From positions 1-64,000 of IMG/VR virus record IMGVR_UViG_3300037851_000572: DNA of 64,000 bases; one strand, 5' to 3'. This DNA is from a virus. A program made the position numbers and the translations under genes. Numbering within the stretch: the first letter of the stretch is position 1; every line of letters starts with the position of its first letter. Below, piece after piece: positions 18,985-56,636 of the stretch. The notes below the pieces were generated by a model. That model had not been told where the DNA came from. It worked only from the letters and a program-made list of their open reading frames with translations, and did not search any database.

Positions 18985-19530
18985 CTACGTCATCTTTCCG
19001 TACCGACGTCGGCTCACGGTTTGAGTCCAGCCATGGTGCGGACAATAGCCGTGGTAGCCAAGGGCGAAGTTGCAGTTCATGCAGAGCACGCGGAAGCCCG
19101 GAGGGAAGTTGTTGCGCTCGAGCCATCGATAGATGTCCTCGTTGTTGGTTTCGCGGCGGTGGTCCGCCCCGTCGCCATTGACGTGGTCGATGGTGAGGAA
19201 CTCGTAGTGACTCTCACCGCAACACACGCATCGAGGGCCCCCGTAGGCGTCAAACACGCGAAGTCGCTGCCGCCTACGTGTGTCCCTGGCCCTCGCACGG
19301 TGCCTCTCCCGATTTCTCGATTCGTACGACAGCTCCCGTGCTCTGCAGGACTCGCAAGAAGAGCGCCCCGGGGCCGCCAGATTAGGGCAGTCGGTGCGAC
19401 TACACACTCCAGGCGGCTTCCCTTTACTCCTATGCTTCGCACGCGCCGTCCGCATGTACTCGGCGCACGCACCGCAGAGGAGGATACCGGGAAGGGATTC
19501 ATGCTTCTTACATCTGGAGCAGGAGGCCAT
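18985..19530 (-). CDS. Free-standing HNH endonuclease
   Basis: CVCCG...IDHVNGDGADHR...N...VLCMNCN, plus N-terminal Cys pairs. Confidence 0.85.
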   Translation of the reverse strand: MASCSRCKKHESLPGILLCGACAEYMRTARAKHRSKGKPPGVCSRTDCPNLAAPGRSSCESCRARELSYESRNRERHRARARDTRRRQRLRVFDAYGGPRCVCCGESHYEFLTIDHVNGDGADHRRETNNEDIYRWLERNNFPPGFRVLCMNCNFALGYHGYCPHHGWTQTVSRRRYGKMT

Positions 19531-19565
19531 GCTACGGCATGGCCTCCATGTTCCCGCAGGTCAAC

Positions 19566-53309: not shown

Positions 53310-56300
53310 TCACACCATTGGCGTGGCGCGGCGCTCGGGGTAGACGTTGGGCTGCGGGCGCATGTCGACGGACGGTGGCGTGGGCCCGCCCCCTCCCCCG
53401 AGGAACTGCGACACCAGCTGCCCAAGCTCTGCGGACTGCGCGTAGATGGCGTCGAGGGCCATCTGCTTCTGCTCGGCCGGCAGCTGCGCAATCTGCTGGG
53501 CCAGAGACTGGGCGAGCTGCATCGGGTCGAGTCCCACGGCGCCCTGCGGCAGCCGCTGGCTGGAGGAGAGCTGGCTGGTGGCCTCCCCCGGCAGCGCCCC
53601 GAGATTCTGGTCAGGGGGAAGCTGAGCTTCGGGTACGGGAGGGGCGCCCATCGTTATGGCATTCCCTGGGGTGGGCTGGGCCGCCCCCTGCTGCGCTGCC
53701 GCTGCGGGGTCCATGGCCCCCTCAACTCCTCCGGGCTCCCCCGGCGCCGGCGCTCCCTGCTCCTGCATCATCCCCTGCTGCGCCTTGGCCTGGTACTTCA
53801 TCATGATGAGCTGCTGCTCACCCTGCACCTCGGCCATCGCGAGCTGCTGCTTCTTGGTCGACTCGAGCCGCAGCGCGGTCTCCCGCACCATGATTTCGTC
53901 CTCGTCCTCCTGATTGAAGTCGGAGTCGGCGAGAAGCGTGGTGTCCGATATCTTCTGCGCCTGATTGAGCTGGAACAGCAGCTGCTTGCGCTGGATGTCG
54001 TCCGCCATCTTGAACGGCTTGAAGCGGATGTTCACCTCGGGCCAGTCGAGGTAGTTGGCAACCATCCGCATAATCCAGTTCGCCTGGAGGCGGTGGCGGA
54101 GTACGTAGCCGATGAACGCGTTCTCGAGCATGCGCATCGAGACGTTGGTGCCGGCATAGCTGAGGCCGCCCTTCAAGAACTCCTGGGGCACGCCCATGCC
54201 CATGATGAGCTGGGTCGAGTGCATCTCCATCTCCTGGAACATCAGGAGCGTGCGCCCGTCACCTCCCACCGTCTGCGTACCGAGCGGCAGCGGCATGATG
54301 GGGATGTAGTTGTTGTCGTAGCGCCAGCGGGCAATCTCCGCCGCGACCTGCTCCTTCCACTCCACGAGGTTGATTGTCGTGTTGTGGGTAGCAACCCCGG
54401 CCACGCAGAACGACCTATCTCCGCGCATCTGGAAGCCCACCACTTCTGGTACGTCGTTGACCTCCTCAACCTCATTGATTCTCAGAAGGACGTAGCCGTC
54501 ACGGAACAATCCGCTCTTTTGTGGTACGTCGTCATCAGCTCGCGACTGCTCTCCTCTAAACAACAGCCGTAGCCGGTCTGCAACCGCTCCGTTGTAGTTA
54601 AGCTGATATGCCGTGGTGCGGAACTTGGAGGTCTCTGTCGGCTCCTCCTTAGCCGTACCACCGATGAGACCAAAAGATAGCAGAAGACGGCGAGCCTCAA
54701 GAAGCAAGGATGGATTGGCCAGCTTCAGCCCCACCCGATTTGTCCTCGTGTGAAAGTCACAGCCATCCCCCAAGAACAATCGGGACAGCGCTTCTAGAAC
54801 AACGTTGTCGGGACCTTCGGATACCACAGCCGGCATCCTCTTATTGGCGAAACCCTCTCCGCACATACCCACCAGCAGCGCAGATAGGATAACGTCCTCA
54901 ATCTGCACGCTACGCCCGTTCTGCTCCGGGCGCTCGCTGTGAGAGACACCACGATACCCCAAACCTCGAACGATTCCCTCTATCTCCTCAGCGTACCTTT
55001 TCTCTTCCAAGTGAAGCGAGAAAGAAACCTGAGAGCCGTTAAGGCTACCCTCGGCCAGATACCACCCAATGAGAGCGGCGAGCCCTGGGGTCATCTTGAA
55101 GAAGCGGGTAACCCGGTCAATACTACCTTCTCGCCTCATAGCGTACGCGACGTTGTAGTTCTGTTCTGACCACCCGCGCTCCTCTAGTAGCTGCCTTCGC
55201 TCCCCCCAACCATTCTTCGGGTCGTTGTTCTCTTCCAACCACTCGTAGATTTCTGCAGCTTGCTGCTCTAACCGATGGTAGACCCACTTACCTGTTACGG
55301 CCCTCTCCTTGATGTAGTCAGCCAGGTCTAACTCTTCCCCCCTCCTAACCCTCCTGTTCACCGGATACGCCACATAGTCCCCCTTCTTGAGCCGTGCAGC
55401 GGGGGTGAACTCAGGGTCTACGAATGCGTGCCGTCCCCGTCTGCTGCCATCAGGACGACGTACGGCAAGAACGGGGTGTTCTTCAGATAGCACGAACGGA
55501 AAGGCAGACAGCGAAGCAACTTTGAACTTGAAGACTTTCTCCCCACTACGGACTGACCGTAGGCTTCTAGCCTCTACCCGCCGCCAGGCTCCCGTGTGAC
55601 TCCTGAGGTAATCGCCCTCCCCAACCTCACACGCAGGCAGCAGCCCTCCTACCGTCTCCACTAGAGTATCTGGCGCCACACAGAACGGGTCGGCGGCTCC
55701 GCTCGCTGCCTGCGGGAACATGATGCGCAGCGGCACGATGTGCTCGAGCAGGATGGCCTCCTGGGCCTTCTTCATCAGCTGCAGGTAGAAGGCGTCCTTC
55801 AGCACCGGCAGGATGAGCGGGATGCCCCAGCCACGGTCCTGCCACGCCAGCGTCGGGCGCTTCATGTGGAAGAAGTTGTCCTTGCTGAAGACCACGCCCT
55901 TCTGCTGCCGCAGCGCCTGGATGAAAATCTGCGGCACCTTCTCGACGACGTCCTTCTTGCCGATGACGATGTCGCTGCGGAGGGGGCCGGGGATGTTGTA
56001 GAAGTAGGTGGTCTCGCCGCTGATGTCGTTGTACGTGACCTCGATGTCCTCGACGTTCCACCGGATGAGTCGGATGCCCGCTGCACTCTTGTAGTAGCGG
56101 TCCTTGACGTCTGCGTCGTCCGTGTGCCCGCAGCGCGGGCAGGTCAGGCGGAACCCGAAGTTCGTGAAGGTCCACTGGTCTCGAATCTTGTCGGCGCGCT
56201 CAGCGAAGTGGCAGTTCCTACAGATGAGGTGCTTCACGAATGGAAAGTGGATGCTGACGCAGCTGTTGCCGTAGCAGTTGTAGTCGAGGCCACACTCCAC

Positions 56301-56636
56301 CTGGAACGGGCGGTACTGCAGGTGGTCGTGGAAGTACTCCTCCCACCGACGCTTCACGCCACGGTTCTCGTGGTCGATGATGATGTCGGTGATGGGATAC
56401 TCGCTCAGCTTAAAGATGGTCGCGTTGATGAGCGGGTTCGTCAGGAAGTAGTACCTGCAGTACTTGAACATCTCCTTGACGGTGGTCGGCAGATACGTGT
56501 GGGCGACGTCGAAGAACGGGTTCGGGTAGTTGACCCCGTTGACGAAGCTACCCTGAATGCGCCCGCGCGTGGACCCGACGCGCCCAGCGCCCATCGCGTT
56601 GACGCCAAAGTTCGCGCTCCAGCCTGGGAACGTCAT
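53310..56636 (-). CDS. Portal protein candidate (T4 gp20-like), interrupted by an intein
   Basis: N-terminus VKEMFKYCRYYFLTNPLINATIFKLSEYPITD resembles the gp20-family block from memory. About 674 aa after splicing. Gln-rich C-terminus. Zn-ribbon-like CRNCHF...CPRCGH. Confidence 0.6.
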   Translation of the reverse strand: MTFPGWSANFGVNAMGAGRVGSTRGRIQGSFVNGVNYPNPFFDVAHTYLPTTVKEMFKYCRYYFLTNPLINATIFKLSEYPITDIIIDHENRGVKRRWEEYFHDHLQYRPFQVECGLDYNCYGNSCVSIHFPFVKHLICRNCHFAERADKIRDQWTFTNFGFRLTCPRCGHTDDADVKDRYYKSAAGIRLIRWNVEDIEVTYNDISGETTYFYNIPGPLRSDIVIGKKDVVEKVPQIFIQALRQQKGVVFSKDNFFHMKRPTLAWQDRGWGIPLILPVLKDAFYLQLMKKAQEAILLEHIVPLRIMFPQAASGAADPFCVAPDTLVETVGGLLPACEVGEGDYLRSHTGAWRRVEARSLRSVRSGEKVFKFKVASLSAFPFVLSEEHPVLAVRRPDGSRRGRHAFVDPEFTPAARLKKGDYVAYPVNRRVRRGEELDLADYIKERAVTGKWVYHRLEQQAAEIYEWLEENNDPKNGWGERRQLLEERGWSEQNYNVAYAMRREGSIDRVTRFFKMTPGLAALIGWYLAEGSLNGSQVSFSLHLEEKRYAEEIEGIVRGLGYRGVSHSERPEQNGRSVQIEDVILSALLVGMCGEGFANKRMPAVVSEGPDNVVLEALSRLFLGDGCDFHTRTNRVGLKLANPSLLLEARRLLLSFGLIGGTAKEEPTETSKFRTTAYQLNYNGAVADRLRLLFRGEQSRADDDVPQKSGLFRDGYVLLRINEVEEVNDVPEVVGFQMRGDRSFCVAGVATHNTTINLVEWKEQVAAEIARWRYDNNYIPIMPLPLGTQTVGGDGRTLLMFQEMEMHSTQLIMGMGVPQEFLKGGLSYAGTNVSMRMLENAFIGYVLRHRLQANWIMRMVANYLDWPEVNIRFKPFKMADDIQRKQLLFQLNQAQKISDTTLLADSDFNQEDEDEIMVRETALRLESTKKQQLAMAEVQGEQQLIMMKYQAKAQQGMMQEQGAPAPGEPGGVEGAMDPAAAAQQGAAQPTPGNAITMGAPPVPEAQLPPDQNLGALPGEATSQLSSSQRLPQGAVGLDPMQLAQSLAQQIAQLPAEQKQMALDAIYAQSAELGQLVSQFLGGGGGPTPPSVDMRPQPNVYPERRATPMV
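54381..55682 (-). mobile_element. Intein with LAGLIDADG domain (434 aa) in the portal gene
   Basis: Starts CVAPDTLVETVGG (Cys codon 55680-55682) and ends VAGVATHN|T (Asn codon 54381-54383). LAGLIDADG motifs LIGWYLAEGSL and LSRLFLGDGCD. GC lower than the flanks. Confidence 0.85.

Follow-up and report, generated by a model that had tools for sequence, protein, structure and literature searches.

The closest described counterparts of the elements considered here are the class-1 inteins found in the terminase large subunit (TerL) and portal genes of actinobacteriophages (Kelley et al. 2016, PMC5050341; bioRxiv 10.1101/2025.01.02.630785). These inteins combine a full-size Hint domain with a double LAGLIDADG endonuclease, are patchily distributed among related phages, and in TerL occupy the nucleotide-binding site. 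Fragmentation of genes by inteins and introns is also common in crAss-like and Jug phages. We analyzed a window of 64 kb, meaning the whole stretch of DNA from position 1 to position 64,000 of IMG/VR virus record IMGVR_UViG_3300037851_000572, which shares with the actinobacteriophage systems its TerL and portal hosts, the TerL site, the intein architecture, and the patchy distribution. It is unlike them in its lineage, which consists of high-GC environmental phages of ~150-190 kb that are distant relatives of Salmonella phage Arash, and in the simultaneous invasion of four essential genes. Moreover, the TerL intein of the window starts with Thr, in place of the Cys or Ser of class-1 inteins or the non-nucleophile of class-3 inteins.

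The four interrupted genes encode a prohead-protease-like protein, TerL, a fused RNA polymerase (RNAP) beta-beta', and the portal protein. Judging from sequence, each of them very probably holds a genuine intein that is competent to splice. By its anatomy, each insert is a full-size class-1 intein with a nested, putative homing endonuclease carrying two LAGLIDADG motifs. The four inserts are ordinary in kind, and it is the Thr1 start of the TerL intein that has rarely if ever been reported in nature.

Four inteins in head-assembly, packaging, and transcription genes

The window holds a minus-strand block of head-assembly, packaging, and transcription genes at 64% GC. It is part of the genome of a ~190-kb, 64%-GC uncultivated tailed phage, a distant relative of Salmonella phage Arash. 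A megablast search with 24.5 kb of the window against GenBank phages gave zero matches. Four very long minus-strand open reading frames (ORFs) of 1097, 1034, 2492, and 1108 amino acids (aa) contain the inserts, whose coordinates in a preliminary description of this DNA proved exact and in frame when the translated ORFs were cut there. In the list that follows, and throughout, a slash marks a splice junction.

24446..27739, minus strand: host gene 1, prohead (capsid maturation) protease-like; precursor 1097 aa, spliced 705 aa
26036..27211, minus strand: intein 1, 392 aa, residues 177-568, G/CLPSGSLI...AVHN/S, Cys1, Ser+1
26729-26755 and 26426-26455, minus strand: LAGLIDADG motifs of intein 1
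31351..34455, minus strand: host gene 2, terminase large subunit; precursor 1034 aa, spliced 612 aa; phrog_675, E 9e-50
32830..34095, minus strand: intein 2, 422 aa, residues 121-542, K/TVVVSSNV...ITHN/S, Thr1, Ser+1
33733-33759 and 33451-33480, minus strand: LAGLIDADG motifs of intein 2
40624..48102, minus strand: host gene 3, fused RNA polymerase beta-beta'; precursor 2492 aa, spliced 2140 aa
45868..46923, minus strand: intein 3, 352 aa, residues 394-745, G/CFDEQTEV...WLGN/S, Cys1, Ser+1
46495-46521 and 46201-46230, minus strand: LAGLIDADG motifs of intein 3
53310..56636, minus strand: host gene 4, portal protein; precursor 1108 aa, spliced 674 aa
54381..55682, minus strand: intein 4, 434 aa, residues 319-752, F/CVAPDTLV...ATHN/T, Cys1, Thr+1
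55047-55073 and 54762-54788, minus strand: LAGLIDADG motifs of intein 4

The inserts are 352-434 aa long, and each has two LAGLIDADG motifs, a block-B His (TGNH in the protease insert, ATTH in TerL, TPNH in RNAP, and SEEH in the portal), and Asn as its last residue, with Ser or Thr next in the host. The translated boundaries bore out two features that had been noticed at the outset. Three inserts start with Cys1 followed by the block x-x-x-[GQD]-[ST]-x-[IV], which in the fourth, that of TerL, follows Thr1 instead, and all four terminate in Asn before a hydroxyl residue (HN/S in the protease, HN/S in TerL, GN/S in RNAP, and HN/T in the portal). The double-LAGLIDADG assignment likewise holds for every insert. 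The family LAGLIDADG_3 (PF14528) matches all four (protease E 2e-12, TerL E 1e-17, RNAP E 3.8e-5, portal E 2e-7), and both motifs in each end in Glu or Asp. Additional profile support comes from NCBIfam models of intein-containing proteins (DnaB, GyrA, RecA, RFC, PolII, Tes), which match all four inserts, including the DnaB-intein model PRK07773 for TerL (E 1.4e-48), and from TIGR01443 (intein_Cterm), which is above threshold for the protease and TerL inserts.

The evidence that carries most weight comes from relatives that lack the inserts. IMG/VR was scanned with the spliced portal, TerL, and major head protein (MCP) sequences, which yielded many related contigs of 100-190 kb, and intein-free alleles are present among these metagenomic relatives for all four genes. 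In all four, removal of the insert recreates the contiguous motif of the intein-free relatives, with predicted junction peptides that include AGQFPDVSMGSK, ...LHTPEGSK, and ...ADPFTTINLVEWK. The failure to rejoin conserved motifs, which the preliminary description had named as refuting the inteins, was thus not observed. In the protease-like gene, the insert lies at DVSMG/SKV, two residues past the invariant Ser174, and 25 intein-free homologs read DVSMGSKVCYDLSS there, exactly as the spliced protein is predicted to. In TerL, two intein-free alleles, at loci L030 (with a local identity of 91%) and L031, have ARQVEKSTLLGN through the Walker A P-loop, which the insert interrupts at ARQVEK/ST. 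The RNAP insert directly follows TPEG of the beta fork domain, the Rpb2_3 (fork) match stops at residue 393, and more than 20 intein-free relatives read TPEG-x-KTGVTL through the site. The portal insert lies at ADPF/TTINL in a conserved segment, where ~25 intein-free relatives read SDP[FY]T[TS]INL through the junction. All four inteins interrupt highly conserved positions, which are probably catalytic (the Ser motif of the protease, the P-loop of TerL, the fork motif of RNAP, and the conserved portal segment). In E. coli beta, the equivalent of the RNAP site is probably the ETPEGPNIG segment.

The inserts had been described, from spot counts, as visibly poorer in GC than their hosts, at about 48%-52% versus about 62%. 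The direction of this difference stands, and its size does not, as the measured values are 57%-58.5% versus 61%-64% (fractions of 0.566-0.585 for inteins and 0.612-0.643 for exteins). The GC content of third codon positions (GC3) is 0.62-0.73 in the inteins and 0.83-0.90 in the exteins. In a sliding analysis, the only 1.2-kb windows below 0.585 GC in the 64 kb fall on the protease, TerL, and portal inteins, and the RNAP intein lies at the 4th percentile of such windows. Islands of low GC and low GC3 thus coincide with the inteins.

None of the four inteins is a recent copy of another. The nearest pair, those of the portal and protease genes, are 31% identical across 251 aa (phmmer E 2e-20). 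Searches of the window with a hidden Markov model (HMM) built from TerL inteins, and with phmmer using all four inteins, revealed no further intein-like ORFs. As a side observation, the protease (26036-27211) and portal (54381-55682) inteins hint at an old switch of one lineage between two head genes. Two of the inteins can also be compared with allelic copies. That of the portal gene at locus L028 occupies the same site and is 66% identical, and that of the RNAP gene at locus L027 is 46% identical and has the same end, WLGN/S. Synonymous sites in these pairs are saturated, so that the ratio of nonsynonymous to synonymous substitution rates is not computable. The motifs are kept in spite of this divergence, which is consistent with purifying selection on the inteins.

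Several points weigh against the conclusion that all four inserts are working inteins in the hosts named. The Hint model PF14890 (Intein_splicing; cut-off 35.8 bits) recognizes the TerL intein at 50.3 bits, reaches 25.7 bits for the protease intein, and gives no match to the RNAP and portal inteins, so that it falls below its cut-off or is absent in three of four, and the case for the latter two rests on their boundaries, motifs, and intein-free alleles. The RNAP intein ends in GN and has no penultimate His, as is also true of its L027 homolog. The TerL intein has Thr1, a start that was unobserved among 450 InBase inteins in 2009 (PMC2807308). The identity of the protease-like host depends on a weak PDB match (E 0.14) and on matches to predicted viral structures.

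Anatomy, intein-free alleles, composition, and conservation are observed directly, whereas we infer how the inteins splice and spread. Each host gene would be translated as a precursor, from which the intein would then excise itself. An N-S acyl shift at Cys1, or an N-O shift at Thr1 in TerL, would be followed by transesterification onto the +1 Ser or Thr and by cyclization of the terminal Asn, and an O-N shift would then rebuild the conserved motif (DVSMG-S, RQVEK-S, TPEG-S, or ADPF-T). Spread would take place on co-infection, when the endonuclease would cut the same conserved site in alleles that lack the intein, and the intein would then be copied in during repair.

One or more of the inserts could instead be decaying inteins that continue to splice because their hosts are essential, have a dead endonuclease, and are inherited only vertically. 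We regard this as unlikely. Their composition is only partly ameliorated, and the GC3 values given above would imply a stay of sufficient length for drift toward the host value. The LAGLIDADG_3 match of the RNAP intein is weak, and RNAP inteins are rare among close relatives (1 of 26 loci). However, all four inteins retain both LAGLIDADG motifs with their acidic residues and are full length, with no deletions of the mini-intein kind. Their patchy presence and absence at identical sites in relatives is what active homing predicts, and endonuclease-domain residues are at least 95% conserved across the 104 TerL inteins described in the next section.

Threonine as the first residue of the TerL inteins

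The identity of TerL is solid, with matches to Pfam families GpA_ATPase and Terminase_6C in addition to its PHROG. Because the intein-free alleles and the obligatory terminal Asn together fix the boundaries of the insert, the intein must start with Thr. A total of 104 allelic inteins at the P-loop site, that of the window included, were used for residue counts. Of these, 43 start with Thr, 43 with Cys, and 18 with Ser, and none starts with a non-nucleophile. The identity of the first residue changes readily, as the nearest relative carries a different residue 1 in 37 of the 104 inteins. In comparison, His72, Cys402, Asp404, His421, and Asn422 are invariant, Thr420-His-Asn is present in 98 of 104, and Ser+1 is found throughout.

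One other position varies together with residue 1. Tyr51, often preceded by Arg, is present in all 61 inteins that start with Thr or Ser, versus only 4 of the 43 that start with Cys. This coupling supports the view of residue 1 as the true nucleophile, with an active site adapted to its identity. A related pattern has been reported for cysteine-less inteins with Ser1 (Pasch et al. 2023, PMC10189870). There, a residue that precedes block B, termed motif NX, is kept solely in inteins whose first residue is an oxygen nucleophile and whose +1 position holds Ser or Thr. The TerL residue appears to follow the same rule. Motif NX is usually His with rare Tyr variants (PMC10189870), whereas the TerL residue is Tyr, and the association in TerL extends to Thr1.

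Thr1 is chemically competent, as the S1T mutant of Tli Pol-2 splices (PMC2807308). No later report of natural Thr1 inteins was found in the literature searched, which is not proof of absence. We tentatively propose, on comparative grounds and at somewhat less than even confidence, that the TerL P-loop inteins form a large natural clade that may use Thr as the N-terminal splicing nucleophile, with a coupled Tyr51, and that has so far gone undescribed. If natural Thr1 inteins have indeed remained undescribed since 2009, this clade would be the first. The occurrence of Thr1, Ser1, and Cys1 at a single homing site, together with the Tyr51 coupling, represents a natural experiment on nucleophile choice and, if the proposal is true, would offer a ready-made set in which to examine the adjustment of the Hint active site to each of these three nucleophiles. 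Junctions with Thr1 and Ser+1 are also free of cysteine, which is relevant to cysteine-less splicing tools, with the caveat that the internal Cys402 is still invariant.

The closest solved relatives of the TerL intein are the class-1 mini-inteins Ssp DnaB (1mi8) and Npu DnaB (4o1r). The TerL intein aligns with them without gaps through block F (xxDxxV..HNF) and block G (HN), and shares their block-B His and GW motif. The solved DnaB inteins differ in having Cys1, a helicase host, and an endonuclease that has been removed, whereas the TerL intein of the window has Thr1, Tyr51, Cys402, and a complete endonuclease.

The invariance of Cys402, which lies at block F position 2, raises the possibility that this residue, rather than Thr1, is the nucleophile, in the manner of class-3 inteins. 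Cys402 in 104 of 104 inteins, the common Thr420-His-Asn ending, and the constant Ser+1 would all suit such a mechanism, and Trp77 and Trp80 lie close to block B, so that the ensemble resembles the WCT signature with Ser or Thr at +1 (PMC2807308). This reading is nonetheless quite improbable. Residue 1 is never Ala, Pro, or Gly, and the Tyr51 covariation with an oxygen nucleophile is sensible only if residue 1 is used. The gapless alignment with Npu and Ssp DnaB places Asp404 at F:4 and Cys402 at F:2, and position 12 of block B holds Met or Val where the class-3 signature calls for Trp. A class-3 (WCT) assignment was therefore rejected, and the likeness is limited to the Thr at G:5 plus the Cys at F:2. 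Cys402 is kept irrespective of the identity of residue 1.

Host genes and the intein load of the clade

The label "protease" in the preliminary description receives no support from Pfam or PHROGs, and is favored by a predicted fold and by putative catalytic residues. The extein has zero family matches in Pfam, PHROGs, and NCBIfam outside the intein. A profile of the protease family, searched against PDB sequences, returned only noise, and the best 150 matches in a representative-library search were close family members that provide no bridge to named protease families. More than 1440 homologs exist, mostly intein-free and 560-580 aa long. A locus search with the protease extein gave no relative, and relatives were reached by protein search and through MCP-anchored loci. 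AlphaFold 2 (AF2) modeling of the whole 705-aa extein with 26 sequences was unusable (predicted local distance difference test score, pLDDT, of 52), and modeling of the N-terminal domain with 87 diverse sequences reached a pLDDT of 88.4. The best PDB match of this domain model, although weak (probability 0.82, TM-score 0.43, with the E value noted above), is the T4 gp21 prohead protease (5jbl). Against BFVD, the model gave 91 matches at E<=1e-3, many of them named prohead protease or COG3740, including phage G gp19. His118 and Ser174 are invariant across the 87 diverse members, and the MCP gene follows downstream. In Arash, the homolog is gp222, which bears the annotation "structural protein"; no direct report on phage Arash surfaced in the literature searched. 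We accept the inferred identity of host gene 1, prohead protease-like, as supported.

No earlier intein in a prohead protease was found in the literature searched, although absence there is not proof. Within that scope, the prohead-protease-like protein would be an added intein host. The protease and portal had both been thought uncommon intein targets. This view agrees with the literature searched for the protease and fails for the portal, as portal inteins are reported in actinobacteriophages (bioRxiv 10.1101/2025.01.02.630785).

The protease-like protein of the window also carries an extra segment of ~130 aa (EKREVLEPRPAKGQNTFQNQ...GKANEGQAYIKNEV) that is shared with homolog P0017 and partly with P0004, and is absent from most homologs. 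It occupies extein residues ~300-430 (window 24446-25900, minus strand), where it separates the protease domain from the conserved C-terminal domain. PF18823 was found in two homologs at the region of this segment.

The RNAP gene had been described as encoding the beta subunit. RNAP is correct, and the single ORF is in fact a beta-beta' fusion, with Pfam Rpb2 domains 2, 3, and 6 followed by Rpb1 domains 1, 2, 3, and 5. The fusion is conserved, because the beta/beta' boundary is spanned by a single high-scoring segment pair in relatives. In Salmonella phage Arash, the RNAP homologs are two ORFs (1525 and 606 aa) that adjoin the portal gene. At 2140 aa, the spliced protein falls well short of the combined length of bacterial beta and beta'. 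The nearest known parallels to the RNAP intein are those in the second-largest RNAP subunits of eukaryotes and nucleocytoplasmic large DNA viruses (NCLDV), which also interrupt conserved motifs near the active-site cleft, including fork-domain sites (Goodwin et al. 2006, PMC1635734). Some of these end in Gly-Asn (PMC1635734), as the RNAP intein of the window does. Unlike those, the intein of the window resides in an RNA polymerase of bacterial type, a beta-beta' fusion, that is encoded by a phage. A protein search with the RNAP intein recovered few full-length RNAPs and did not retrieve the window protein, and gave no RNAP-intein frequency.

Several further observations concern the RNAP site. 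The inteins of the window (TPEG/C...GN/SKTG) and of L027 (18589-19632; TPE/C...GN/SEKSG) are inserted one codon apart, and both variants recur in metagenomic fragments (TPE/C in P0391 and P0392; TPEG/C in P0406). This offset suggests that the +1 Ser sets the exact insertion point. Proteins P0388-P0405, which are ~560-600 aa long and come from contigs of up to 217 kb, match the RNAP intein at 29%-36% identity, and at least one of them, P0400, has the intein at a different fork-region site (...ITPGMQ/CFSGDTEVFT). Related inteins therefore also appear to invade other phage RNAP beta-like genes.

The portal protein was recognized by its tblastn similarity to two other phage portals, the annotated one of Salmonella phage Arash (31% identity, covering 95% of the query) and that of Bacillus phage G (23% identity). 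Its extein has zero matches in Pfam, PHROGs, and NCBIfam. Because two of the four host genes have no family match as precursors, annotators will need the spliced sequences to recognize them. Relatives have portal inteins at other sites as well. A second site is occupied in L007 (9109-10001) and L025 (5336-6243), with the pattern DY[NH]/CLAGE...LTGN/CYGN, where the portal gene of the window is uninterrupted, and a third is occupied in L027 (10958-12286), with RWRQD/CVSPD...SAN/SNYIP. The inteins at these two sites are without a penultimate His.

The density of inteins had been called unusually high. High it is, and with insertion sites numbering at least three in the portal gene, at least four in the protease gene, and at least three in TerL across the clade, it is typical of an intein-rich clade rather than unusual. 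In the protease family, clusters of insertions fall at extein residues ~67-74, 112-118, 175-186, and 240, and in TerL at ~112-130, 200-218, and 408-420. By length and Pfam domains, 14 of the 120 best matches in an extein-only search with the protease appear to carry an intein (one of them being the window protein), and the protease gene is split in 7 of 53 MCP-anchored loci. The contigs behind L027/L067 and L028/L106 have two or three inteins. Four inteins per genome is at the high end for this clade and is not unique. Some TerL proteins reach 1350-1800 aa (the P0122-P0203 set) and some protease-like proteins up to 1718 aa (the P0242-P0359 set), sizes that point to two or three inteins in a single gene. 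This is a clade of large environmental phages whose essential genes for head assembly, packaging, and transcription are saturated with inteins at several sites per gene.

Another idea is that the inserts are conditional switches that time the activation of the protease, terminase, RNAP, and portal, and are not purely selfish. All four lie at catalytic or highly conserved motifs, three have a redox-sensitive Cys1, and conditional splicing is documented for some inteins (PMC6195587). We give this idea little credence, since most relatives function without any of these inteins and homing would itself be expected to leave insertions at conserved sites. That the inserts are artefacts of assembly or reading frame, or are non-splicing insertion domains, might be suspected of a metagenomic contig in which two host genes have no Pfam match, and is effectively refuted by four open, in-frame ORFs with exact boundaries and canonical splice residues, by the intein-free alleles, by hundreds of related precursors, and by the recovery of an identical 1097-aa protease precursor allele from a second data set (an independent assembly from SRR12687606), which shows that this insert is not an assembly artefact.

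An HNH gene beside the capsid gene and other neighbors

Free-standing HNH homing endonucleases are known beside phage structural genes, typically as small ORFs in an intergenic slot next to a head gene that are present in some relatives and absent from others. The window has an ORF of this kind, which had been reported to sit just downstream from the capsid gene.

18985..19530, minus strand: free-standing HNH endonuclease gene, 181 aa; phrog_2255 E 3.5e-7, phrog_144 E 3.4e-5
19566..20696, minus strand: major head protein (MCP) gene; phrog_2522 E 5.5e-13

Both its position, with a gap of 36 bp to the MCP gene, and its assignment to PHROG HNH families agree with that report. Unlike the known systems, it is recognized by PHROG families only, as the ORF gave no Pfam match at E<=0.1. 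The ORF shows DH...N...CxxC spacing, and its GC3 of 0.731 is the lowest of the genes tested, the remaining genes being at 0.735 or above.

About 300 MCP relatives are present in IMG/VR. Among the 50 relatives in which both genes that flank the slot downstream from MCP could be compared, 31 have a gap of only 87-164 bp, and 7 have an HNH gene that is 38%-47% identical to that of the window. This pattern of presence and absence points to a mobile homing endonuclease, and the HNH gene after the capsid gene would be a separate, free-standing homing-type element in the intergenic slot. Seven other relatives (L046, L049, L063, L066, L067, L072, and L104) have 784-1189 bp in the slot with no homolog of the window HNH protein. 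These carry something else there, possibly another endonuclease.

Between the RNAP and portal genes, at 49489-52109 on the plus strand, lie an AAA_5 (MoxR-like) ATPase gene and a gene with DUF2201_N metallopeptidase-like plus VWA-like regions. This plus-strand pair is odd cargo within the structural and transcription block.

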